This document shows positions 12,915 to 62,185 of a stretch of 64,000 nt of DNA, in pieces (the first letter of the stretch is position 1; the number at the start of each line of letters is the position of its first letter). A program made the position numbers and the translations under genes. The notes below the pieces were generated by a model. The model did no database searches. It was not told the origin of the DNA and was given only the letters and a program-made list of their open reading frames with translations. The DNA comes from a virus: positions 64,001 to 128,000 of IMG/VR virus record IMGVR_UViG_3300046501_000132. One strand, 5' to 3'.

Positions 12915-13523
12915 ATGTTTACCCTTGCAGTGGATGTTGATTTGACGGTTGTCGATACGCTGACTCCGTGGATGGAATGGTTTAAGCAATATACAGATGA
13001 GCCTGTGAAGAATGAGGACAAGGCTTATAATCTTGATCCGGAAATGCGTGTGATTCTGGCTCGTGCCGGTCGTTCCGATGTTGATCCAGTTGCATATTGG
13101 AAGAAGCCTGACCTATATGATAATCTGGATCCGATTCCAGGAGCGGTGGAGAATCTCAAGTATATCAGCGATAACTACAACGTAGCTGTAGTATTCGCCA
13201 GTACCTGCTTCCCGGAACATACCGCTTCCAAAGAACGCTTGATCAAGCGTTGCTTTCCTTTCGCAGATGGGTTTATCGCCACCCACGATAAGCATTTTAT
13301 CGGTTACGATGCTCTGATCGACGATAAGTTGCATCATATGCAGATGGGTCGTTTTTTCCGACCGAAAGCTCAGCATATTATCTTCACTGGAGTCCGCGCA
13401 GATGGGACGGACATCGACAGGTTGCCTTTGACCAAGATGAAAGATTGGAACAAGTTGGAACGAATTCTGGATCATACACGTCCCGCCAGCCGCTTTACTC
13501 CTGCCTTCGCATACGCTACTTGA
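12915..13523 (+). CDS. 5'(3')-deoxyribonucleotidase (HAD, NT5C-like)
   Basis: AVDVDLTVVD, LYDNLDPIPGA, LIDD. Confidence 0.8.
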   Translation: MFTLAVDVDLTVVDTLTPWMEWFKQYTDEPVKNEDKAYNLDPEMRVILARAGRSDVDPVAYWKKPDLYDNLDPIPGAVENLKYISDNYNVAVVFASTCFPEHTASKERLIKRCFPFADGFIATHDKHFIGYDALIDDKLHHMQMGRFFRPKAQHIIFTGVRADGTDIDRLPLTKMKDWNKLERILDHTRPASRFTPAFAYAT

Positions 13524-13574: not shown

Positions 13575-14642
13575 ATGAAGAACCGAGCAAAAGACGTATT
13601 GTATTGTGGTGTGGATATGCACCGAATCCTCAACGCGAAGCCGACTCTGAACACTGAAGTCTTGGCGAGTCTGTATGAGTTCGTCAAGGATCGATATGAA
13701 ATTCACAAGAAGAAGGATGTGGAGAAGCTGCCAGCTCCATGGACGACCAATCCTATCTTCCTTCAGGTGAAGTTCACGAACGTCCGCCGCGAGCATGATC
13801 GTGAGTCGCGTAACGTGATTGAGAACATTTGTTCCAAGACTGGGTATAGTCTGAAGGATCGATTCTTCAATATCATCCTGATGCGCTTCTGGAACAAATT
13901 TGAATCATATCGCCTAGCCACTGGCGGTCAGATGCTAAAGTTCCCGTTGAGCGATGAGGACTTCGCTGCTTGTAATAAGCGCATCGAAGACAATCCTGAC
14001 CATACCTGGTGGAGCGGCGCGTACTATACCTGCCCGGTGCGCAGCTGGATGGAACGGATTCATTTCAAGAAGGAAGTCCCGACTGACGAACTGAACTTCA
14101 GCCAGTCGCCAATCTATTTTGCTAAGTATGCGCTTACCGACGAACTGTGGGCGGATATGGAAGCCGCGAAGTCTCCACTAGAGTTGTTCGAGCGTCTGAC
14201 GTCGATTCCTTGGATGGGCAAGTTCCTGGTTTATCAGTGGTTCGTGGACTTCACATACTGCGAGGATTACTGGTTCAGCGAGAATGAGTTCACAATCTCC
14301 GGTCCTGGATGTACGAAGGGTATCAACCTGTTGTTCGAGGATCGGGATGGAATGACGCACGAGGAATGTCTATTCTGGATGCGAAATAACCAGATGGATA
14401 TGTTCGGTCGATTCGGTTACAATCCGAATGAGCTGTTCAACGATCTTCCGGATCACGATCGTTTCATCAATATCATGTCTTTCGAGAACTTGATGTGTGA
14501 ACTTCAGAAGTATATGAAGGGCGTTGAGGCCGTCAAGACTGGAAAGAAGCCGCGCGGAAAAAGCTCTTATGATGGAAGTGGGGCAAAGGTCGCTAAGAAA
14601 GCGAAGAAGGTTGAACCAGTTGTGAACCTGTTTGATATCTAA
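13575..14642 (+). CDS. aGPT-Pplase1-family (amino acid:DNA transferase-like) base-hypermodification enzyme
   Basis: PWTTNPIF..KFTNVRREHDR, FLVYQWFVDFTY..FSENEF..GPG..KG, ENLMCELQKY. Confidence 0.8.
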   Translation: MKNRAKDVLYCGVDMHRILNAKPTLNTEVLASLYEFVKDRYEIHKKKDVEKLPAPWTTNPIFLQVKFTNVRREHDRESRNVIENICSKTGYSLKDRFFNIILMRFWNKFESYRLATGGQMLKFPLSDEDFAACNKRIEDNPDHTWWSGAYYTCPVRSWMERIHFKKEVPTDELNFSQSPIYFAKYALTDELWADMEAAKSPLELFERLTSIPWMGKFLVYQWFVDFTYCEDYWFSENEFTISGPGCTKGINLLFEDRDGMTHEECLFWMRNNQMDMFGRFGYNPNELFNDLPDHDRFINIMSFENLMCELQKYMKGVEAVKTGKKPRGKSSYDGSGAKVAKKAKKVEPVVNLFDI

Positions 14643-32570: not shown

Positions 32571-33257
32571 ATGAGCAGCAAGGTAGTAAAACTGTCGCAG
32601 GATACCCTGCAAGTGCTGAAGATTGCACATACCATTAATAAGTCCCTAGTCTTTAAGGCGGGCAACGAAATCAAGACCGTATCGGCTACCGGCGCAATCG
32701 TTATGGAAGCGACTGTTGCTGAAACTTTCCCGGCTGATTTTGCGATTTACGAGTTGAATAAGCTGCTTGGTGTTCTAGCCCTGCCAGCGTTCAAGGATGC
32801 GGAACTGGTCTTCGAAGATGGCGTTGATACGCATATGACGATCAAGGCCGGTGACTCCAAGATCAAATACTTCTACACCTCCGAAGACTTTGCTCAGCAC
32901 CCCGGCCGCACCATCGTGCTCCCGAAGGTGGATGTGGAAGCGAATGTGAACCGCGATACGCTGGAAGGCTTCGAAAAGGCCGCTGCGGCTCTTGGTCACA
33001 AGGTGATGAAGTTCCAGGTGAAGGACAAGGTTCTATCTCTGATCGCTACGACTCCGGAAATCGACACCTCCAACGATTATGTCGTTGAACTGGGTGAATC
33101 GGATAGCGACGATTACGAGGCGCTGATCAAGCTGGAAAACCTGAAGTTGGTTCCAGGCGATTTCAAGGTCACGCTTCTGAAGATGAACGGTCGCGGTATC
33201 TCCCGTTGGGAACACCAGCAACGCAAGATTAATACTTTCATTGGGCTGGAACTGTAA
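32571..33257 (+). CDS. sliding clamp gp45
   Basis: KLSQDTLQVLK..IN, FAIYELNKLLGVL, ENLKLVPGDF; 228 aa, precedes clamp loader. Confidence 0.92.
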   Translation: MSSKVVKLSQDTLQVLKIAHTINKSLVFKAGNEIKTVSATGAIVMEATVAETFPADFAIYELNKLLGVLALPAFKDAELVFEDGVDTHMTIKAGDSKIKYFYTSEDFAQHPGRTIVLPKVDVEANVNRDTLEGFEKAAAALGHKVMKFQVKDKVLSLIATTPEIDTSNDYVVELGESDSDDYEALIKLENLKLVPGDFKVTLLKMNGRGISRWEHQQRKINTFIGLEL

Positions 33258-33480: not shown

Positions 33481-34437
33481 ATGAGTCAAGCATACATCTG
33501 GGCTGAAGTCTTCCGCCCCTCCAATCTGGATGAAGTCATCATCCCGGATTCGGTCAAAACTCAATTCCTAAAATTCATTGAAGATGGCCAACTGCCGAAT
33601 CTTCTTCTGACGTCTGCGTCTCCTGGTACGGGTAAGACGACTACTGCCCGTGCCCTGTGTAACGCAATCGGCGTCAAGCCCCTGTTTATCAACGCCTCAC
33701 TCAATAATAGTATTGACGACATCCGGATGATCGTGATGCAATACGCAACGACTTCTGCGGTGTCGATGTTCGGTGATGAGAAGGCAAACCACAAGGTTGT
33801 GATTTTCGATGAGGCTGACCGCCTCTCCGCTAACGCGATGGATGCGCTGAAGGGGATTATCGAAGAAACGCACAAGAACTGCCGCTTCATTCTGACGGCG
33901 AACAACAAGAACAAAATCATTGCACCGCTGCAGTCGCGGTTGACTAATATCGAGTTCCGGTTCACCAAGTCTGATTCGGATAAGATGATGGCGAAGATGC
34001 TGAAGCGCGTCTTTGACATTCTGGAACAGACGCAGACGAAATATAATAAGGCCGCCGTGGCCGGTATCGTCAAGACGTTCTTCCCGGACAACCGTGGTCT
34101 TCTGACGTTCCTTCAGATGGAAGCCCAACTGGGTGAGATCAACGAGGGTTCGCTGGCTAAGGCGGCATCCGCCAGCCCGGAGACTCTGATTGAGTCGATG
34201 AAGGCTAAGAAGTACAAGGAAGTCCAAGCTTGGGTGCTTGGTAACGCCGACCGTCTGGGTGAAGACTTCTATGAGAAGTTGTTCAAGGTTCTTGAACCGC
34301 AGATCACCGATCAATCTCTACCTCAGTTGGTTCTGATTCTCGGAGAAGCCCAGAAGTATGATAGCGTGGTTGCAAGTCGCTTTCTGCACTTCTTCGCGGT
34401 GGCGACTGAGGTGATGATGCAGGTGCAGTTCAAATGA
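33481..34437 (+). CDS. clamp loader ATPase subunit gp44
   Basis: W.E.FRP, SPGTGKTT, FDEAD, CRFILTAN, PLQSR. Confidence 0.95.
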   Translation: MSQAYIWAEVFRPSNLDEVIIPDSVKTQFLKFIEDGQLPNLLLTSASPGTGKTTTARALCNAIGVKPLFINASLNNSIDDIRMIVMQYATTSAVSMFGDEKANHKVVIFDEADRLSANAMDALKGIIEETHKNCRFILTANNKNKIIAPLQSRLTNIEFRFTKSDSDKMMAKMLKRVFDILEQTQTKYNKAAVAGIVKTFFPDNRGLLTFLQMEAQLGEINEGSLAKAASASPETLIESMKAKKYKEVQAWVLGNADRLGEDFYEKLFKVLEPQITDQSLPQLVLILGEAQKYDSVVASRFLHFFAVATEVMMQVQFK

Positions 34438-34453
34438 TCTGGGATATTCTGAA

Positions 34454-34879
34454 GTGGTATTGGAGGAAATAATGCCGGGATTATTTGAGTGGTTGGACGG
34501 TATTAATACCAAGACAAATCTAGAGCTTGATGAAGACGATCCTTACAAGGATTATGTTCCTTTCCAGATTAACAATGGTATGGCGCAATTCCTGGATACG
34601 GTTCTACTAGCGAACGAAATGAATAAGCGTCCTTGGTTGACTAAGGAAATGCAGTTCAAGTTCTATCATGGAGCCGTGACCAAGAAGAAACGAATGGGGA
34701 AGTGGGCGAAGGTTGAGGAGGTAAACAAGGATGACGTTGAAGTTGTTGCTACCCACTACGGAATCAATCATCAGACAGCCTCTGTATACCTGAAATTGAT
34801 GAAGCCTGAGGAATTCACCGCGCTGAAGAAAGCCGGTGATACCGGAGGGGCGGAAGCGAAGCGAGGAAGGAAGAAATAA
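34454..34879 (+). CDS. clamp loader small subunit gp62
   Basis: LFEWLDGIN, YVPFQIN, DTVLLANEMN, KKRMGKWAK. Confidence 0.9.
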   Translation: MVLEEIMPGLFEWLDGINTKTNLELDEDDPYKDYVPFQINNGMAQFLDTVLLANEMNKRPWLTKEMQFKFYHGAVTKKKRMGKWAKVEEVNKDDVEVVATHYGINHQTASVYLKLMKPEEFTALKKAGDTGGAEAKRGRKK

Positions 34880-44187: not shown

Positions 44188-44265
44188 TATTGGTCCTTAA
44201 AGGTCTGACCCTTCATTTCCAGGCCATAAATTCATAGTGAGTGATATTAATATTTAGTTTTTAGC

Positions 44266-44294
44266 TTTACTATGCTATGTAAACGTAGTAGACT
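44266..44294 (+). promoter_or_regulatory. sigma70-type promoter of the glycosyltransferase operon
   Basis: TTTACT-17nt-TAGACT. Confidence 0.6.
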
Positions 44295-44322
44295 AGAGTT
44301 TAAGATATGGAGAATATGTAAT

Positions 44323-45549
44323 ATGAAAATTGCGGCTATCTATTGGCCCACTTCCTCGGTTGGAGGAATTAACTCGGTGCTCGTCGCTCTCCGGAAGGAA
44401 GCAGAGGCCAACGGAGACACTTTTGATGTGATCCGTTGTGGGAATCTGAAGACGATCAACCCGACCAAATTCGATGAACCGCAGCTGATTCGCGGCGGCG
44501 ACACGTTCATCACCGTCCATGGCGAGTGCTCTCACCACCCGGACAAAGTTCAAGGCACGGTCAAGTTCTTGGAAGAGAACTATGACGCGCTATACTTCGC
44601 ATACATCTGTCCTCATGCCAATAAGGCTTATGGGGATGATCCGGTATTCTTGCCGATCTATACTGACACCAAACTCCCGAAGGTCGCATTCATCACGGAT
44701 GCTTACTGGGACACATACAAAGACTGGGGCCTGATGTGCCTCCCTCACGTCAAGAAGACGTTGGTGACTCAACCCGCCTACGCGGAGCCGCTTCTGAAGT
44801 ATGGACTGCCGGTTCAAGCAATTGATGCGCCGATCTTTCCTCAAGACGTAAGTCACATCAAGCGTTCGGAAGAACCGCTGGTGGTCTGGACTTCCCAATG
44901 GAAGAACATCAAGGGAATTACCAAGCTGATGCCGGTAATTCCCGAGATCACCAAGGTCGCCAAGATGGATATGTTCTCCAATGGTATCCTGTATTACCAG
45001 ATGCGAGAAACCGATGAGTGGAAGGCGGCAATCGGTCGAGATCACTTCAAGGGATTCGATGGTCAAGGTGAAGCAGATTTCTTTGGCTATGTTCCCCTGG
45101 AGCAAATTCCTGAGATTCTGAAGCACTCGTGGTTCATGATTGACCTTCAGGGAATCGGCAATCCGAAATTCAAGGCATATACGCAAGGTGCGTATAATAT
45201 CACGACAATCGAAGCGCTGTTGTATGGCTCGTGCCCGATCCTAGCCGATCAAGCCAAGCGTTCGATCATCCCTAATGAATTCTTCCTGACCGTTGAAGAC
45301 GCGCGTCAGATTCCGGACCTGATCAAGAATAATCTGAAGTTCGCTCGCGATCAAGATCGTATCGCCGCTGCGCGGGAATGGGTTCTGGAACGCCATTCGT
45401 CCAGCAATATGTATAAGCAAGTGATCGATGCTCTGAACGGGCCGGACCCAGAACCGTTCGATCCAAGCAAGATCGTAGAAGCCGCGCCTGAACCGGAAAA
45501 GAAGCCGGAACCTGCCGCTGCTATGGATATGTTCAATATGTTTGTGTGA
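44323..45549 (+). CDS. GT-B fold glycosyltransferase
   Basis: MKIA..GGI N-terminus, KNIKGI, FFGYVP..IPEIL, TTIEALLYGSCPI. Confidence 0.75.
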   Translation: MKIAAIYWPTSSVGGINSVLVALRKEAEANGDTFDVIRCGNLKTINPTKFDEPQLIRGGDTFITVHGECSHHPDKVQGTVKFLEENYDALYFAYICPHANKAYGDDPVFLPIYTDTKLPKVAFITDAYWDTYKDWGLMCLPHVKKTLVTQPAYAEPLLKYGLPVQAIDAPIFPQDVSHIKRSEEPLVVWTSQWKNIKGITKLMPVIPEITKVAKMDMFSNGILYYQMRETDEWKAAIGRDHFKGFDGQGEADFFGYVPLEQIPEILKHSWFMIDLQGIGNPKFKAYTQGAYNITTIEALLYGSCPILADQAKRSIIPNEFFLTVEDARQIPDLIKNNLKFARDQDRIAAAREWVLERHSSSNMYKQVIDALNGPDPEPFDPSKIVEAAPEPEKKPEPAAAMDMFNMFV

Positions 45550-45552
45550 TCT

Positions 45553-46116
45553 ATGACGACATTTTACGTGCTGGAAGCCCACATTGACGATTCGTTCTTG
45601 TCGATGCACCGTCATATGACGGATTGGATCAAACAGGGCCATACCGTGATCATCGGTTCAGTCTACACCGGAGGTCGGAAACGCGACACGGAAATCAAGG
45701 CTTACGCTGAGCTCATAGGAGCCTCTACGCACTGCTATTTCCATGACCCTGAGCTAGACCCAGACCTGGGTGAGTTCACGCTCCCTAGCTCATTTATGCT
45801 GGGCCGTGAAGCACTCACAATCGTATGTCCTATCGCTATCCAGAACCACCAGCACGTGAAGCTGAGGGAATGGGTGGAGAAGTCGGTCAAGCCCGATCTG
45901 TATTACTTGGACATTCCGTACTACACCAAGGCCAAGAACGAAGACGAGGTCAACGAGAAGCTGAAAGGCTTCAAGATTGTGAGTGTGAAGAAGCCAACTC
46001 ACATGAAGGGCAAGGACAAGTACTGGAAGTGCTTCAAAGGACAATCCAAGTATTTCTTCTATAACCCGCCTGAGAGTTGGGTTCAGATTCCGGAAATCCT
46101 ATTGGAGAAAGAATGA
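45553..46116 (+). CDS. PIG-L/LmbE-like N-deacetylase
   Basis: VLEAHIDDSFLS (HxDD), R..E, P...NHQH, YLDIPYY, F.GQ. Confidence 0.65.
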   Translation: MTTFYVLEAHIDDSFLSMHRHMTDWIKQGHTVIIGSVYTGGRKRDTEIKAYAELIGASTHCYFHDPELDPDLGEFTLPSSFMLGREALTIVCPIAIQNHQHVKLREWVEKSVKPDLYYLDIPYYTKAKNEDEVNEKLKGFKIVSVKKPTHMKGKDKYWKCFKGQSKYFFYNPPESWVQIPEILLEKE

Positions 46117-47348
46117 AGATCATTATCTATGATAACTTCGTTTGCTCTCCGATGGAAGGTCGTGGTGCGGCGGGTGGTCTGGAGAAGGTGGCGAAGGATG
46201 ATGCTTTCAATCTGACTCGCGCTGGTCATGATGTGATCTTCTTGTATGCGGGACATCAATGCAAGTATGACTTCCCGTTCCGGACGATGCAAGTTCACGA
46301 GAAGTCGAAAGAAGACGTCATCGAGCAAGACGGTAGCATCGTCGCTTGGCAGAATCGGGTCGTGGCGAATGTGATCAACATTATCAAGCGTGAAGAGCCT
46401 GATATCATGTTGTATCATAGTCATACGACTTCCCCGGCCAAGAAGATCATCAAGGAAACTGGAATCCCGACGCTGATGACGATTCACGGGTTCCTGACGG
46501 GCAATCTGTTTATCGACACCGGGCGGATCACCGCCTATCGTGAACTTTGTGAAATGGGCGCGTATCTGGTCACCAATACAGAAGCCACCGGAAAGCGCAT
46601 CTTCAAGCAGGCAAAGTTGGTTCGTGATCGCTACGTCAAGAACGAGCAGGATTATTGGAACTTCGTCCGAATCATTGATGATCAGCTTCCGTTCTATCAT
46701 GACTTCCACCGGACATTCATGTTCGTGGAAGAAGAATTTGAGATCAAGGAATCGAGCGGGCGGGCGATCACCGCATCCCGCGCCGATCCTCTGAAGCTGA
46801 CCCACAAGTTCAAGGACATCAAGCACCCGCTGGACATCTTCTGGAAGTCGTTCCCATCGACAAGTAAGACTTATCCCAAGTGGCTTGAAACCAACCGTGG
46901 ATACTTCGGGGATAATCCTGATATCAAGTTCTATTGGAATTGGAAGTATAGCGGTATCATGGATACGTTCTCTCAAGCCAAGGCGTGTCTGATTACCTGG
47001 CCGGATGAGACTTTCGGATTGACTGCATTCGAAGCCGCACAAAAGGGCGTGCCGTCGATCTGTATGCATAAGGGTGAACTCAGTTGTACGGCTGAGTTCC
47101 TGTCGCGTGTTAGCAAGCCAGTTCTCATCGACTATCGGGACAAGAACTTCGTCGATCAAGTTGTAGATGCGCTCAATAATATCGATGATAGTCTTCATAC
47201 TCGTCAGGCTTTCGCAGAGGACTTCCGTACATACTTCAGCTATACTAGCTGGGTGAATGAGAAAGAGGAATTTATGCGCAGAGCGATCAATATGATGAAA
47301 GAGGTTGGTCGGCCTGAACCGAGTTCCCTGTTTAACGATTGGAGCTGA
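46113..47348 (+). CDS. GT-B (GT4-like) glycosyltransferase
   Basis: MKII..GGLEK, L.RAGHDV, PDIMLYHS, TIHG, ETFGLTAFEAAQKGVP. Confidence 0.85.
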   Translation: MKIIIYDNFVCSPMEGRGAAGGLEKVAKDDAFNLTRAGHDVIFLYAGHQCKYDFPFRTMQVHEKSKEDVIEQDGSIVAWQNRVVANVINIIKREEPDIMLYHSHTTSPAKKIIKETGIPTLMTIHGFLTGNLFIDTGRITAYRELCEMGAYLVTNTEATGKRIFKQAKLVRDRYVKNEQDYWNFVRIIDDQLPFYHDFHRTFMFVEEEFEIKESSGRAITASRADPLKLTHKFKDIKHPLDIFWKSFPSTSKTYPKWLETNRGYFGDNPDIKFYWNWKYSGIMDTFSQAKACLITWPDETFGLTAFEAAQKGVPSICMHKGELSCTAEFLSRVSKPVLIDYRDKNFVDQVVDALNNIDDSLHTRQAFAEDFRTYFSYTSWVNEKEEFMRRAINMMKEVGRPEPSSLFNDWS

Positions 47349-47349
47349 T

Positions 47350-47793
47350 GTGAGTGTTCTGAATGCAGTGAAGCGCGCCTATGGGGTCATGGAACAACGT
47401 GGGTGGGATACGGTCTATTGGGCTGTCGATCTCCACGGTGTATGTCTGGAATCCAACTACAAGCAGGGTGGTTACCAGTGGATCAACCAGACCGCGAAAG
47501 AGACGCTTCAGTTGATTTCGATGCTCCCCGAGAGCAAGATCATCCTCTGGTCGTCGGTACACGCCAATGAACAATACGATATTATCAAGTTCTTTCGGGA
47601 TGCAGATATTGCAGTTTTCGATTTCAATCAAAACCGATTCGAGAAAAGCAATCACTGTTCCAACTTCGATGAGAAGTTCTACTTCAGCGTTTTGCTGGAT
47701 GATAAGGCTGGATTTGATCCGAAAACAGATTGGGCTGAGATTAACACGTATTTGACGTTGCAAGCGTATGGAAGAGGGTTGTTCAATGAATGA
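47350..47793 (+). CDS. HAD-like protein
   Basis: AVDLHG, ILWSS, KFYF..LLDDKAGF. Confidence 0.7.
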   Translation: MSVLNAVKRAYGVMEQRGWDTVYWAVDLHGVCLESNYKQGGYQWINQTAKETLQLISMLPESKIILWSSVHANEQYDIIKFFRDADIAVFDFNQNRFEKSNHCSNFDEKFYFSVLLDDKAGFDPKTDWAEINTYLTLQAYGRGLFNE

Positions 47794-47962
47794 ACATGAA
47801 GAAGAACTGAAGAAGCAACGCGAGTCGGTGGGTGAGATCATTGCCGACATCGTAGAAGGTGCGGTTGAAGTAGCAGGCGACGTGATCGGTGGTTTCATCG
47901 AAGGCGTTGGTAATGTATGCGGCGCCATTTCTGAAGCCGCAAGTGAATGTACTTTGGACTAA
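47786..47962 (+). CDS. hypothetical protein
   Basis: 58-aa acidic/amphipathic ORF. Confidence 0.55.
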   Translation: MNEHEEELKKQRESVGEIIADIVEGAVEVAGDVIGGFIEGVGNVCGAISEAASECTLD

Positions 47963-47973
47963 GGAGTCAATCA

Positions 47974-48234
47974 ATGAGTATGAGTCAGTACGCGACAAAG
48001 GAAGAATACCAAGCGTCGCAAAACAATAAGCCGGTGGTGCATTTTCTCAATGAGGCCACTTTCGAAGACAACTGGATGGGAACCGGCTGTAAGGTTGCCC
48101 ATTGTGTGGTGATCGATCACCCGCGTCTTGGTCAGAGTGATGTACGCACGAGTGCAGTCATCAAGATCAATGAGGATGGTTCGTTCGAAACTCGCAATAG
48201 CATCTACCAACCGATTCAACAACTGAACGGTTAA
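47974..48234 (+). CDS. phage hypothetical protein
   Basis: DHPRLG..VRTS.V..ETRNSIY; AAGGAG RBS. Confidence 0.7.
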   Translation: MSMSQYATKEEYQASQNNKPVVHFLNEATFEDNWMGTGCKVAHCVVIDHPRLGQSDVRTSAVIKINEDGSFETRNSIYQPIQQLNG

Positions 48235-48734
48235 TGGCTGGGCGGGTAGTTAAACCGCCAGTCAGACGAGAAAACGCTTACACAGAGGTGAGCGTTTTTC
48301 TTGCTGGCAGCATCGAAATGGGCAAGGCGGTCGATTGGCAGTACGCACTAGGCGAATCTCTGACCTACTTCCACGAAGTGGGTAATATATACAATCCAAG
48401 GCGTGACGACTGGGACTCCAGTTGGGAACAGCGCAAGGATAATCCTCAGTTCAACGAACAAGTCACTTGGGAGTTGGATCATATTGAGGATGCAGACATC
48501 GTATTCTTCAACTTTATCCCCGATACGCAATCCCCCATCACTCTCCTAGAGCTGGGATTTGCGCTGGGTCAGATGAAGGAAGTCATCGTTTGTTGTCCTC
48601 CAGGCTTCTGGCGTAAGGGAAATATCGACATCCTTTGTGATCGTGAGTCGGTGACAGTTTATGATGACTACACGCAGGCAATCGCTGCACTATATAAGAG
48701 GATACACGGAATCTATGAGGAAATGAAACAATGA
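48234..48734 (+). CDS. nucleoside 2-deoxyribosyltransferase-like protein
   Basis: VFLAGSI, DWQ, YNPRR, QVTWE, SPITLLELG, FWRKGN. Confidence 0.85.
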   Translation: MAGRVVKPPVRRENAYTEVSVFLAGSIEMGKAVDWQYALGESLTYFHEVGNIYNPRRDDWDSSWEQRKDNPQFNEQVTWELDHIEDADIVFFNFIPDTQSPITLLELGFALGQMKEVIVCCPPGFWRKGNIDILCDRESVTVYDDYTQAIAALYKRIHGIYEEMKQ

Positions 48735-48973
48735 ATATTGAAGTGCAAATCGCATTGCTAGAAAAACGCAAGCGTGAAATCGAACTTGATTATGAGGCTG
48801 ATGATAATCGCCTCCAAGGACTTCTGGCTGAAGGTCGGAAGATTGCCAAGATTGTAGACGCCAAGAAAGAAAAAGCCCAACATCTGGAATTCGCCATCAC
48901 CAATCTTCGCGCTCTGCATGACATTGAGGTTGAGGAAGCGGTCCCTGAGGAAGACCCTTGGGGTGATGATTGA
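48731..48973 (+). CDS. hypothetical coiled-coil protein
   Basis: 80-aa ORF, ATGA overlap. Confidence 0.65.
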   Translation: MNIEVQIALLEKRKREIELDYEADDNRLQGLLAEGRKIAKIVDAKKEKAQHLEFAITNLRALHDIEVEEAVPEEDPWGDD

Positions 48974-49337
48974 CATCACCAAGTTTCATAATCGGGCCAA
49001 ACTGATATTCGACCGAGAGAATCTAGGCAACTACAAGCAGCGCGTAGTTGCTTTTGTCTTAGATTCCAAAGGTCGGATACTCACAGAAGGATGGAATTCT
49101 TATACCAAGACGCATCCAGTCCAACAACAAGCTGCCTTGGCTCATGACGAGAAGAAGTGTTTTCTCCACGCTGAGATCCACGCTCTCACTCGACTGCGGT
49201 ATAAGCAGTTGTCTAAGCAAGAAACAATTGTGGTGCTTCGGATGGACGTTAGTAAACGCTTACTTCCGGGCGCGCCCTGTAGCATTTGTCAAGATGTTAT
49301 CTCTCAGTTCGGGATCACGAACATCGTGCATTCCTAA
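48966..49337 (+). CDS. cytidine/deoxycytidylate deaminase-like protein
   Basis: G.N..KTHP, HAEIHAL, PCSIC. Confidence 0.8.
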   Translation: MIDITKFHNRAKLIFDRENLGNYKQRVVAFVLDSKGRILTEGWNSYTKTHPVQQQAALAHDEKKCFLHAEIHALTRLRYKQLSKQETIVVLRMDVSKRLLPGAPCSICQDVISQFGITNIVHS

Positions 49338-49610: not shown

Positions 49611-49725
49611 TCATAAAGAGTCCATATTTCTATGGACTCTTTTTCTTTACTTCTGCTATGTAAAGCGTATAATAGTCCCTATCGAAACGTTTTACATAGT
49701 ACGAACTTCCTACCGGAGATATATC

Positions 49726-61606: not shown

Positions 61607-62185
61607 TTACACAGCCGAAGCAGCGGCAATAGCTTGCTTCGCGGCGGTACGAGCTTTGAATGCATTGCTCTTCACAGCCAGATTTGCGTTGTCCAATGCG
61701 ACCTGACACGATTTCGCATACAAGCGGAAGTCTTCAACGTCGGCTTCCGGACGATATTCCACACGATTGTCACCGAACATCAGACGAGTACGCACTTGTT
61801 CTTCGTACCAGTTGGAACCCATGACTTCCGTCAGGTCTTGATCATAGGTCAGTTCGCAGAACTTTTCGGTCAGTTCGGCGCGAGCGAACGGCGTCAGCGT
61901 CGGGAAGTTCATCACCACGATGCCGGCCGAGGCAGCGACATTCCGCAGGTTCTGCTTCGGAATGTAGAAATATGCCGGCTTGTTTTCCAGATTTTCCAGG
62001 GCTTGGTCACGACCATACGACTTGACGAAGCGTTCATCTTCGCGGCAGCGAGCAGCTTGGCCCACGACGATGTTGCCTTCGTCGTCCACCTTCCAAGCGA
62101 TGGTGACGCCACCCAGGTGATTGAACTGGCCGGTCACCGGGTCTTGTTCACGAGCGTGGATGTAGTAGACTTTGTTCTTGATCAT
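61607..62185 (-). CDS. early hypothetical protein
   Basis: GGVTIAW..A.C...RF.KS.GR..A; promoter upstream. Confidence 0.75.
   Translation of the reverse strand: MIKNKVYYIHAREQDPVTGQFNHLGGVTIAWKVDDEGNIVVGQAARCREDERFVKSYGRDQALENLENKPAYFYIPKQNLRNVAASAGIVVMNFPTLTPFARAELTEKFCELTYDQDLTEVMGSNWYEEQVRTRLMFGDNRVEYRPEADVEDFRLYAKSCQVALDNANLAVKSNAFKARTAAKQAIAAASAV

Follow-up and report, generated by a model that had tools for sequence, protein, structure and literature searches.

The window analyzed here comprises 64,000 nucleotides (bases 64001-128000) of the 170,684-bp IMG/VR virus record IMGVR_UViG_3300046501_000132, which CheckV rates as complete. It carries a compact four-gene operon (44323-47793) that we consider, on balance, to be the post-replicative half of a thymidine-hypermodification system, which probably builds an amino-sugar glycan on 5-hydroxymethyldeoxyuridine (5-hmdU) in DNA. 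This reading is built on features observed here, namely the folds and intact catalytic motifs of the encoded proteins, the linkage of their genes, the C-terminal tails and a virus-restricted distribution. An amino-sugar hypermodification of DNA linked to a gene at 13575 had been suggested in an earlier note on this window, made from the sequence alone, and is now supported by comparative genomics, a structure like that of the T4 DNA alpha-glucosyltransferase (AGT), and polymerase-like tails. The four tightly coupled genes of that note also proved to be real, and comprise a first glycosyltransferase (GT1), a PIG-L/LmbE-like deacetylase, a second glycosyltransferase (GT2) and a small gene with a weak likeness to HAD proteins; in search of the single promoter placed ahead of them, a consensus scan found no sigma-70-like match in 44188-44322. 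The elements of the operon are:

44188-44322, no strand assigned: divergent intergenic region of 132 bp, the presumed promoter region, with GGAG ahead of the ATG at 44323.
44323-45549, plus strand: GT1, a GT-B glycosyltransferase of 408 amino acids, recognized by its structure model and homologues.
45553-46116, plus strand: de-N-acetylase of the PIG-L/LmbE fold, 187 amino acids, recognized by its structure model and motifs.
46113-47348, plus strand: GT2, a GT4-family glycosyltransferase of 411 amino acids and predicted second-sugar transferase, recognized by Pfam; its ATGA start overlaps the stop codon of the PIG-L gene.
47350-47793, plus strand: N-terminal domain of a two-domain protein, 147 amino acids, recognized by alignment to fused relatives.

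The model of GT1 (predicted local distance difference test score, pLDDT, 90.7) displays the two-domain topology of the GT-B fold that had been foreseen for this 408-residue enzyme, and aligns with more than 900 GT-B chains of the PDB at a Z of at least 8 (VIA-align; best Z 27.4). Its top five structural matches are all T4 AGT (Z 26.7-27.4 over 333-342 residues, with 11-12% identity in the structural alignment), and several of the top-ranked AGT entries were solved with DNA containing hydroxymethyluracil (HMU). After AGT come the enzymes BshA (Z 25.7), TarM, PglA and MshA, which use UDP-N-acetylglucosamine (UDP-GlcNAc). The AGT match agrees with the genomic context detailed below, a shared fold being no proof of function. 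At the sequence level, the best Pfam match of GT1 is PF13524 with an E-value of 0.091 (13.2 bits against a cut-off of 25), and a profile of 26 homologues recovered no PDB sequence at E up to 10, AGT included; thus, this search revealed no sequence homology between GT1 and the T4 AGT family (GT72). Accordingly, we treat GT1 as a family of its own, with a resemblance to GT4 that is limited to the fold. This family is small and nearly virus-only: a word index yielded 93 relatives and a search of 1.84 billion proteins 232 cluster representatives, and its sole occurrence in 185,579 cellular species genomes is on a 2-kb contig of a metagenome-assembled genome (MAG).

The PIG-L/LmbE identity claimed for the middle protein is also borne out, both by its modeled fold and by its EAHIDD and QNHQH motifs. 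The model (pLDDT 90.4) retrieves LmbE/PIG-L proteins in each of its top 30 Foldseek matches (E 5e-7 to 7e-4), which include teicoplanin Orf2*, Dbv21, BC1534, BshB and MshB. Four residues, His10, Asp12, Asp13 and His101, are invariant across 21 homologues; zinc is predicted to be bound by His10, Asp13 and His101, with Asp12 as the predicted catalytic base. In the QNHQH motif of this lineage an Asn takes the place of the first His of the canonical HxDH, a position at which distant homologues have His. The window protein scores 15.7 bits with the PF02585 model (threshold 28.2), a homologue from locus L010 reaches 32.2 bits, and homologues of 40-44% identity carry the domain. The third protein, GT2, passes the threshold of PF13439 (Glyco_transf_4; 4e-8, 33.8 bits against a cut-off of 28.5), as befits the 411-residue GT4-like enzyme that it had been taken for. 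It further matches PF20706 (GT4-conflict) at 5e-5, which is below the cut-off, and its homologues, which we found in T4-like phages only, also carry PF00534. PHROGs returned no match for GT1, PIG-L or GT2, and PADLOC returned zero matches for the four operon proteins. As had been stated previously, none of these four proteins has a predicted transmembrane segment, since no 19-residue window in any of them reaches a Kyte-Doolittle value of 1.6.

The main evidence comes from the gene neighborhoods of GT1 in other phages. We gathered 55 GT1 loci (43 distinct), across which GT1 is accompanied by the deacetylase, and family hidden Markov models (HMMs) were run on their open reading frames (ORFs); the linkage counts given here are for the 17 distinct loci that offer at least 4 kb on both sides of GT1. 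A PIG-L homologue adjoins GT1 in every one of the 17. Within 6 kb of GT1 we find a protein with the PF18723 domain in 10, a thymidylate synthase (TS) homologue in 11 and a YfbR-type HD nucleotidase in seven. When the viral records with GT1 were searched in their entirety, PF18723 was present in 10 of 11 and the TS homologue in 9 of 11. These clusters lie on different genomic backbones, including those with a SNF2 helicase and an Enc34 single-stranded-DNA-binding protein, those with a Mu-type portal and PolA, and those with a lambda-type terminase; in phages of such unrelated build, GT1 and PIG-L both lie no more than ~5 kb from the TS homologue, PF18723 and the HD nucleotidase. Additionally, seven loci show a TET-associated glycosyltransferase (TAGT; PF20691) between PF18723 and GT1 (L012:7379-8191, L015:11107-11964, L016:9159-9977, L037:4624-5436 and three more), an arrangement which implies that two transferases would contribute to the glycan on one and the same base of these phages. 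The neighborhood analysis of homologues that the earlier note had called for as a check thus places GT1 and PIG-L in a common cluster with PF18723, TS, HD and sometimes TAGT.

The composition of these clusters also points to a system assembled from separable parts. One distant GT1 member (E 8e-29 to the profile) occurs beside PF18723, TS, HD, PolA and a dCTP deaminase and lacks PIG-L, and a Methyltransf_21 gene stands in the place of PIG-L after two distant members (L070:374-2106 and a contig of GCA_015689235.1), which suggests a putative variant with a methylated rather than a deacetylated sugar. In T4-like relatives, GT2 is replaced by genes for a PglD-like acetyltransferase, a DegT aminotransferase and a 4,6-dehydratase (PglD/PglE/PglF-like), which represent a bacillosamine-type sugar pathway; in two of them these lie between PIG-L and the two-domain protein (L003:10600-13495 and L006:10594-13500). 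Hence, going by the distant GT1 members that lack PIG-L or have Methyltransf_21 instead, GT1, PF18723 and TS look like an old core, to which the deacetylase, TAGT, methyltransferase, GT2 and PglD/E/F-like enzymes have been added as interchangeable tailoring parts. We also noticed a DUF3310 protein following the TS/HD genes in eight module loci (for example, L012:12647-13051, L013:16892-17473, L015:14814-15446, L017:14602-14952 and L048:9323-9742).

A further line of evidence lies in the C-termini of the two glycosyltransferases. Residues ~375-408 of GT1 form a disordered Pro/Glu/Lys linker ending in AMDMFNMFV (pLDDT below 50 at 394-409), and all of the approximately 27 T4-like GT1 homologues have a variable linker followed by the terminal motif [FVLM]-D-[ML]-F-x-[MFL]-[FW]. 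Homologues from outside the T4-like group, of ~370 residues, are without linker and motif. GT2 ends in SSLFNDWS in the window and in SLFDLF, SLFDF or YDMFSF in its homologues. The DNA polymerase gp43 of T4, as read from the T4 genome, ends in ASLDFLFG, a tail known to bind the gp45 clamp, and the polymerase of the window phage ends in ASVMDWFA. The deacetylase has no polymerase-like tail. The simplest reading of these short motifs is that GT1 and GT2 both dock on the sliding clamp and would act on freshly replicated DNA; the clamp of this phage is encoded in the window:

32571-33257, plus strand: gp45-type sliding clamp (PF09116, PF02916), the predicted docking site of the GT1 and GT2 tails.

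A scan for the tail motif within the genome is not significant by itself (six ORFs against ~3 expected); therefore, the argument rests on the conservation of the tails across homologues. Two further observations concern such tails. An ORF of 256 amino acids outside the window (genome positions 33957-34727) ends in NPVDFFMG, a C-terminal motif like those of the polymerase, GT1 and GT2, and may encode another clamp client. GT2 homologues of 38-41% identity (L060:542-1777 and L061:772-2007) lie next to the genes for topoisomerase II, clamp and clamp loader in other T4-like phages, without GT1 or PIG-L in view; they nonetheless have the endings QSLFDF or YDMFSF, and glycosyltransferases with clamp-type tails may, by their sequences, be widespread in the T4-like group.

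The base on which these enzymes might act is indicated by genes other than those of the glycosyltransferases; the candidates are:

13575-14642, plus strand: homologue of clade-1 aGPT-Pplase, 355 amino acids (PF18723 'HMUDK_hel', 1e-63, 215.8 bits).
12915-13523, plus strand: NT5C-type deoxypyrimidine 5'-nucleotidase (PF06941, 3e-10), encoded immediately ahead of the PF18723 gene; a candidate enzyme for depleting the pool of dTMP.
Genome positions 141755-142840, minus strand, outside the window: TS homologue, aligned to E. coli ThyA and MilA.
48234-48734, plus strand: nucleoside 2-deoxyribosyltransferase-like protein (Nuc_deoxyri_tr2; PF15891, 3e-33).
48918-49337, plus strand: dCMP/cytidine deaminase (PF00383, 1e-9), which would supply dUMP to the TS homologue.
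Genome positions 61618-62097 (L068:1119-1598), minus strand, just outside the window: kinase-like P-loop protein of the AAA_33 family, 159 amino acids, with a weak match to a kinase HMM.

Enzymes that hydroxymethylate dCMP or CMP carry Asp at position 177 (E. coli numbering), and the CMP hydroxymethylase MilA indeed has Asp at this position. The TS of the window genome and ten homologues from the module retain the catalytic Cys, Asp169 and Asn177; the 5-hydroxy-dCMP synthases carry D169N (PMC13326640). Because both Asn177 and Asp169 are kept, the TS homologues of the module are likely to be uracil-directed, which fits the synthesis of 5-hydroxymethyl-dUMP (5-hmdUMP). The dCMP deaminase, the NT5C nucleotidase and the deoxyribosyltransferase-like protein fit a remodeling of the nucleotide pool. 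Taken together, the AGT match, the linkage to TS and PF18723, and the tail lend indirect support to the predicted transfer of a sugar by GT1 to a hydroxymethylpyrimidine in duplex DNA.

The protein encoded at 13575 had been described as an aGPT transferase. Its aGPT-type affinity stands, but it belongs with the clade-1 aGPT-Pplases and not with the characterized clade-2 transferases. In the Delftia phage PhiW-14, gp72, which is listed as aG/PT-PPlase1 (PMC5889632), matches PF18723, and the proven 5-hmdU kinase, gp37, matches no Pfam family; it follows that PF18723 denotes the clade-1 aGPT-Pplases. On the same grounds, we dropped the candidate reading of the PF18723 protein, after its Pfam label, as a 5-hmdU kinase. 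That label, 'HMUDK_hel, 5-hmdU DNA kinase helical domain', sits on free-standing clade-1 proteins without a kinase domain, and annotations drawn from the names of PF18723 and PF18748 can mislead. In the window protein, Cys308-Glu309 and Lys312-Tyr313 belong to an invariant motif, and the Cys-Glu dyad, which is kept in 20 homologues, resembles the dyad used for catalysis by the clade-2 amino-acid:DNA transferases (PMC8989533). The clade-2 family itself (PF18724) has no match in the phage genome or in 11 module-bearing viral records, in a search that found the positive control, gp109 of PhiW-14. The 5-hmdU kinase family (PF18748) likewise has no match in the phage genome, with a model insensitive enough to miss the proven kinase gp37. 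An HMM that we built of eight 5-hmdU kinases gave a weak match (E 9e-4) to the AAA_33 P-loop protein listed above, which could be the missing kinase or else a polynucleotide-kinase-type enzyme of the nearby tRNA-repair genes.

From these elements we infer the acceptor, donor, sugar, linkage and order of steps of a pathway, along with the role of the PF18723 protein and a purpose, namely the evasion of restriction and other DNA-targeting defences. The TS homologue would make 5-hmdUMP, the dCMP deaminase and the pyrimidine nucleotidases would shape the pool, and the polymerase would incorporate 5-hmdU. GT1, tethered to the clamp, would then transfer an N-acetylhexosamine, most simply from UDP-GlcNAc, to the hydroxymethyl group; given that GT1 resembles retaining enzymes, the linkage would probably be alpha. 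The PIG-L enzyme would next remove the N-acetyl group and leave a protonatable amine in the major groove, a charge of the same kind as in putrescinyl-, aminoethyl- and aminoethoxymethyl-thymine, and GT2, with its clamp-binding-like tail, would add the second sugar. The clade-1 aGPT-Pplase would participate in the same pathway in a manner as yet undefined and may recognize or flip 5-hmdU. To our knowledge, every characterized member of the PIG-L family (the GlcNAc-PI enzyme, MshB, BshB, Orf2* and BtrD) deacetylates GlcNAc after its transfer to an acceptor. For this reason we place GT1 before PIG-L, an order that also yields the primary amine common to the known thymidine hypermodifications.

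A more specific proposal follows from this scheme, which we advance with less confidence than the scheme itself, as plausible but falling somewhat short of being likely. The phage would make the first DNA base with a free amino sugar, through clamp-tethered transfer of N-acetylhexosamine (HexNAc) to 5-hmdU in the wake of the replication fork, deacetylation by PIG-L and extension by a clamp-tethered GT2, with PF18723 as a partner of glycosylation rather than of a kinase route. No de-N-acetylase acting on a glycan attached to DNA is known so far, and the PIG-L protein would be the first; relatives would vary the glycan by swapping in the bacillosamine-type pathway, TAGT or a methyltransferase.

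Several observations weigh against the proposal of a DNA-linked amino sugar. If GT1 uses the free hydroxymethyl group, there is no obvious job for a PF18723 protein with a Cys-Glu dyad, which hints that the real chemistry may differ. In the window genome, a distance of ~30 kb separates the operon from PF18723 and from the TS homologue; hence, the case for linkage rests on other phages. Whether the TS product is 5-hmdUMP or plain dTMP is not readable from its sequence. AGT leads BshA by only ~1-1.7 Z among GT-B enzymes that are all alike, and clamp binding is deduced solely from a short motif. With 43 Lys and Arg against 54 Asp and Glu, GT1 has a net acidic composition, which is unusual for a DNA-binding enzyme. 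Further, the phage is uncultured, and homologues of GT1 and PIG-L were undetected by tblastn in any cultured phage of the August 2025 collection. A predicted complex of GT1 residues 1-385 with the PF18723 protein scored 0.00, a value that carries no weight either way.

The dyad of PF18723 also lies at the heart of an alternative that we regard as unlikely. Here, still within thymidine hypermodification, GT1 and PIG-L would first build a soluble amino-sugar conjugate in the style of BshA/BshB or MshA/MshB, which PF18723 would attach to an activated 5-hmdU, linking a free amine or hydroxyl to the C5-methylene as the clade-2 enzymes do with glycine, serine and putrescine. This would give PF18723 a role, with an invariant Cys-Glu pair like the catalytic one of clade 2 (PMC8989533), and the deacetylase would create exactly the nucleophile that is needed; BshA and MshA are also close structural matches of GT1. 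However, the top match is AGT and not BshA, the clamp-like tails of GT1 and GT2 make little sense for enzymes acting on small molecules, and no convincing 5-hmdU kinase that might activate the base emerged from our insensitive search. Moreover, reconstitutions in the literature did not require the clade-1 enzymes (PMC8989533), and the co-occurrence of TAGT points to direct glycosylation of DNA.

Comparably improbable, in our estimate, is the alternative that GT1 works on DNA as a second-step enzyme, its acceptor being either a group installed by PF18723 or another enzyme, or the first sugar added by another transferase; the chemistry at the base would then not be that of an O-glycosylated hydroxymethyluracil. 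The TAGT next to GT1 in seven loci, whose family is predicted to glycosylate bases of DNA, could add such a sugar, PF18723 is nearly always present, and the thymidines of the phages SP-15, YerA41 and Carin-5 carry linkers, phosphate and oligosaccharides (PMC12686479). Yet the window genome encodes neither a TAGT nor a clade-2 transferase, which leaves GT1 as the sole candidate for the first transfer, unless PF18723 provides one; its closest structural match, AGT, also acts directly on hydroxymethylpyrimidine.

The weakest alternative, to which we give very little credence, is that the enzymes glycosylate virion proteins (as in the capsid and tail of mycobacteriophages), host-envelope precursors or a small metabolite: the operon does adjoin a minus-strand gene of the structural-looking phrog_25346, with a weak match to a tail-fibre connector, PglA and TarM are among the structural matches of GT1, and the PglD/PglE/PglF-like genes that replace GT2 in relatives make a bacillosamine-type sugar best known from protein glycosylation, but virion-protein or envelope glycosylation is unlikely because GT1 and PIG-L cluster in unrelated phages with TS, PF18723, HD and TAGT and not with structural genes, both glycosyltransferases bear polymerase-like tails, membrane segments and lipid-carrier enzymes are lacking, GT1 is absent from cellular genomes but for the one MAG contig, and the flanking genes of the transcription unit are those of nucleotide metabolism.

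The transcription unit of the operon probably runs on to a terminator-like hairpin and takes in the genes for the Nuc_deoxyri_tr2 protein and the dCMP deaminase. The former is found at the same position in L006 and L026, and probably functions in deoxynucleotide-pool metabolism from the same transcription unit as GT1. The remaining features of this unit are:

47768-47962, plus strand: acidic ORF of 64 amino acids between the halves of the split two-domain protein, with no family match and possibly not a gene.
47947-48234, plus strand: C-terminal domain of the two-domain protein, 95 amino acids, VIDHPRLG ... FETRNSIYQPIQQLNG, aligned to L002, L006, L026 and L003.
49615-49642, plus strand: terminator-like hairpin, a 12-bp stem followed by a T run, identified by consensus match only.

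The fourth gene of the operon most likely starts at the GTG at 47350, 2 nt past the GT2 stop codon and behind a GGAG; its ORF is also open from the TTG at 47305. This gene, which had been called HAD-like, is real; its assignment to the HAD superfamily is weak, and it encodes the N-terminal domain of a two-domain protein. It displays the motifs DLHGV and LLDDKAG, the former resembling motif I of HAD proteins (DxDx[TV]) with the second Asp changed to His. No Pfam match was obtained for it, and the leads from other sources are weak (phrog_1238 at 4e-4; a viral HAD-like cluster of the ESM Atlas with a score of 0.89). The two-domain protein is fused in L002, L006 and L026 (209-217 amino acids) and conserved downstream of GT1/PIG-L in T4-like relatives. 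In the window it is split into two intact ORFs, and it has been split independently in L003. We considered a frameshifted pseudogene and dropped this idea, as L003 has the same two-ORF arrangement with both ORFs intact; from the sequences, the split looks like gene fission rather than decay.

The window itself has a replication module of the T4 type, with a UvsW-like helicase, ribonucleotide reductase, gp32, a family-B polymerase, topoisomerase II, the gp45-type clamp and a clamp loader. The polymerase shows 36-40% identity to those of its nearest cultured relatives, namely Ralstonia phage RSP15, Pseudomonas phage pf16 and Delftia phage PhiW-14. The last of these, at 36% identity, places the window phage in the same broad group as a phage that is known for alpha-putrescinylthymine. 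We compared the operon with 50,697 phage records (August 2025 collection), among which its DNA had no megablast match; GT1, PIG-L and three distant homologues had no tblastn match there, and GT2 had weak matches only, at 24% identity. The cultured Stenotrophomonas phages DLP3 and DLP5 carry genes for PIG-L, WcaG, WecE, a methyltransferase and a BshA-like protein near those for ParB and DUF3310 (PMC7326821), and may offer a tractable analogue; in a 2026 paper on DNA modification in DLP3, the sole mention of 'deacetylase' is in the reference list.

The wider interest of these observations is that it depends on the hypermodification of its DNA which of the restriction, CRISPR and glycosylase defences a phage can evade, and that the study of such modifications has furnished widely used enzymes, such as the T4 glucosyltransferases employed in the mapping of 5-hydroxymethylcytosine (5hmC). 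If our proposal is true, an amino sugar at thymine positions would be a new chemical class of DNA, with a cationic glycan; a HexNAc transferase and a de-N-acetylase would be new activities on polymeric DNA; and the clade-1 aGPT-Pplase family would gain its first functional context. The clamp-like tails, in turn, suggest that modification is physically coupled to replication. The modular variation of the system across dozens of uncultured phages, with GT2, PglDEF-like enzymes, TAGT or a methyltransferase, points to a diversity of DNA glycans driven by an arms race.

In terms of known systems, the earlier statement that no characterized phage DNA modification combines a GT-B enzyme with a PIG-L step agrees with our literature searches. 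The overall logic is that of the T-even phages: a TS homologue (gp42 in T4) makes a hydroxymethylpyrimidine nucleotide, which is built into DNA by the polymerase and glycosylated there by soluble GT-B enzymes (the alpha- and beta-glucosyltransferases in T4), possibly with a second sugar, as by the second-sugar transferase of T2 and T6; T4 AGT is also the best structural match of GT1. However, the T-even product is a glucosyl-hydroxymethylcytosine, whereas the base here is predicted to derive from uracil, as indicated by the retained Asn177, and the predicted sugar is an N-acetylhexosamine, which would later lose its acetyl group. The present module also differs in having a PF18723 protein and clamp-binding-like tails on the transferases; we know of no such tail on the T4 glucosyltransferases. 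With the system of kinase and amino-acid:DNA transferase (AADT) of PhiW-14, ViI, M6, PaMx11 and SP10 (PMC5889632; PMC8989533), it shares a start from TS-made 5-hmdU, a clade-1 aGPT-Pplase (gp72 in PhiW-14 and the protein encoded at 13575 here) and an expected primary amine in the end product. It differs from that system in that clade-2 PF18724 is absent and no clear kinase was found, and in its use of glycosyltransferases and a deacetylase in place of the pyridoxal-phosphate, radical-SAM and flavin enzymes.

The combination of a retaining GT-B enzyme that adds GlcNAc with a PIG-L/LmbE zinc enzyme that deacetylates it is found in the bacillithiol, mycothiol and teicoplanin pathways (BshA/BshB, MshA/MshB and GtfA/Orf2*), and BshA, MshA, BshB, MshB and Orf2* are among the top structural matches of GT1 or PIG-L. 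There the acceptor is a small molecule or antibiotic aglycone, whereas the genes described here are virus-restricted, encode transferases with clamp-binding-like tails and cluster with genes for DNA precursors; the Pfam families of the neighboring genes include no cysteine ligase (BshC or MshC). The TET/JBP- and ThyS-associated transferases (PMC8256090; bioRxiv 10.1101/2023.12.21.572611) resemble the present ones in the post-replicative glycosylation of hydroxymethylpyrimidines with diverse glycans, and GT-B enzymes were reported near ThyS in ~28% of the mined contigs (bioRxiv 10.1101/2023.12.21.572611). This body of work differs in dealing mainly with 5hmC produced by a methyltransferase and TET, and the preprint appears to include no deacetylase step, given that the words deacetylase, PIG-L and LmbE are absent from it. 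Closest to the present system are the oligosaccharide-bearing thymidines of SP-15, YerA41 and Carin-5, in which sugars, possibly GlcNAc, have been measured on thymidine derivatives (PMC12686479). Those phages differ in that their polymerase is of the PolA-UDG type and their linker is a pentyl group with phosphate. Adjacent to the polymerase gene, Carin-5 carries a block of as yet unsolved function that holds glycosyltransferases together with a putative GlcNAc deacetylase (PMC12686479); the deacetylase in this group is annotated as one of the polysaccharide-deacetylase type, in contrast to the PIG-L type of the window phage.

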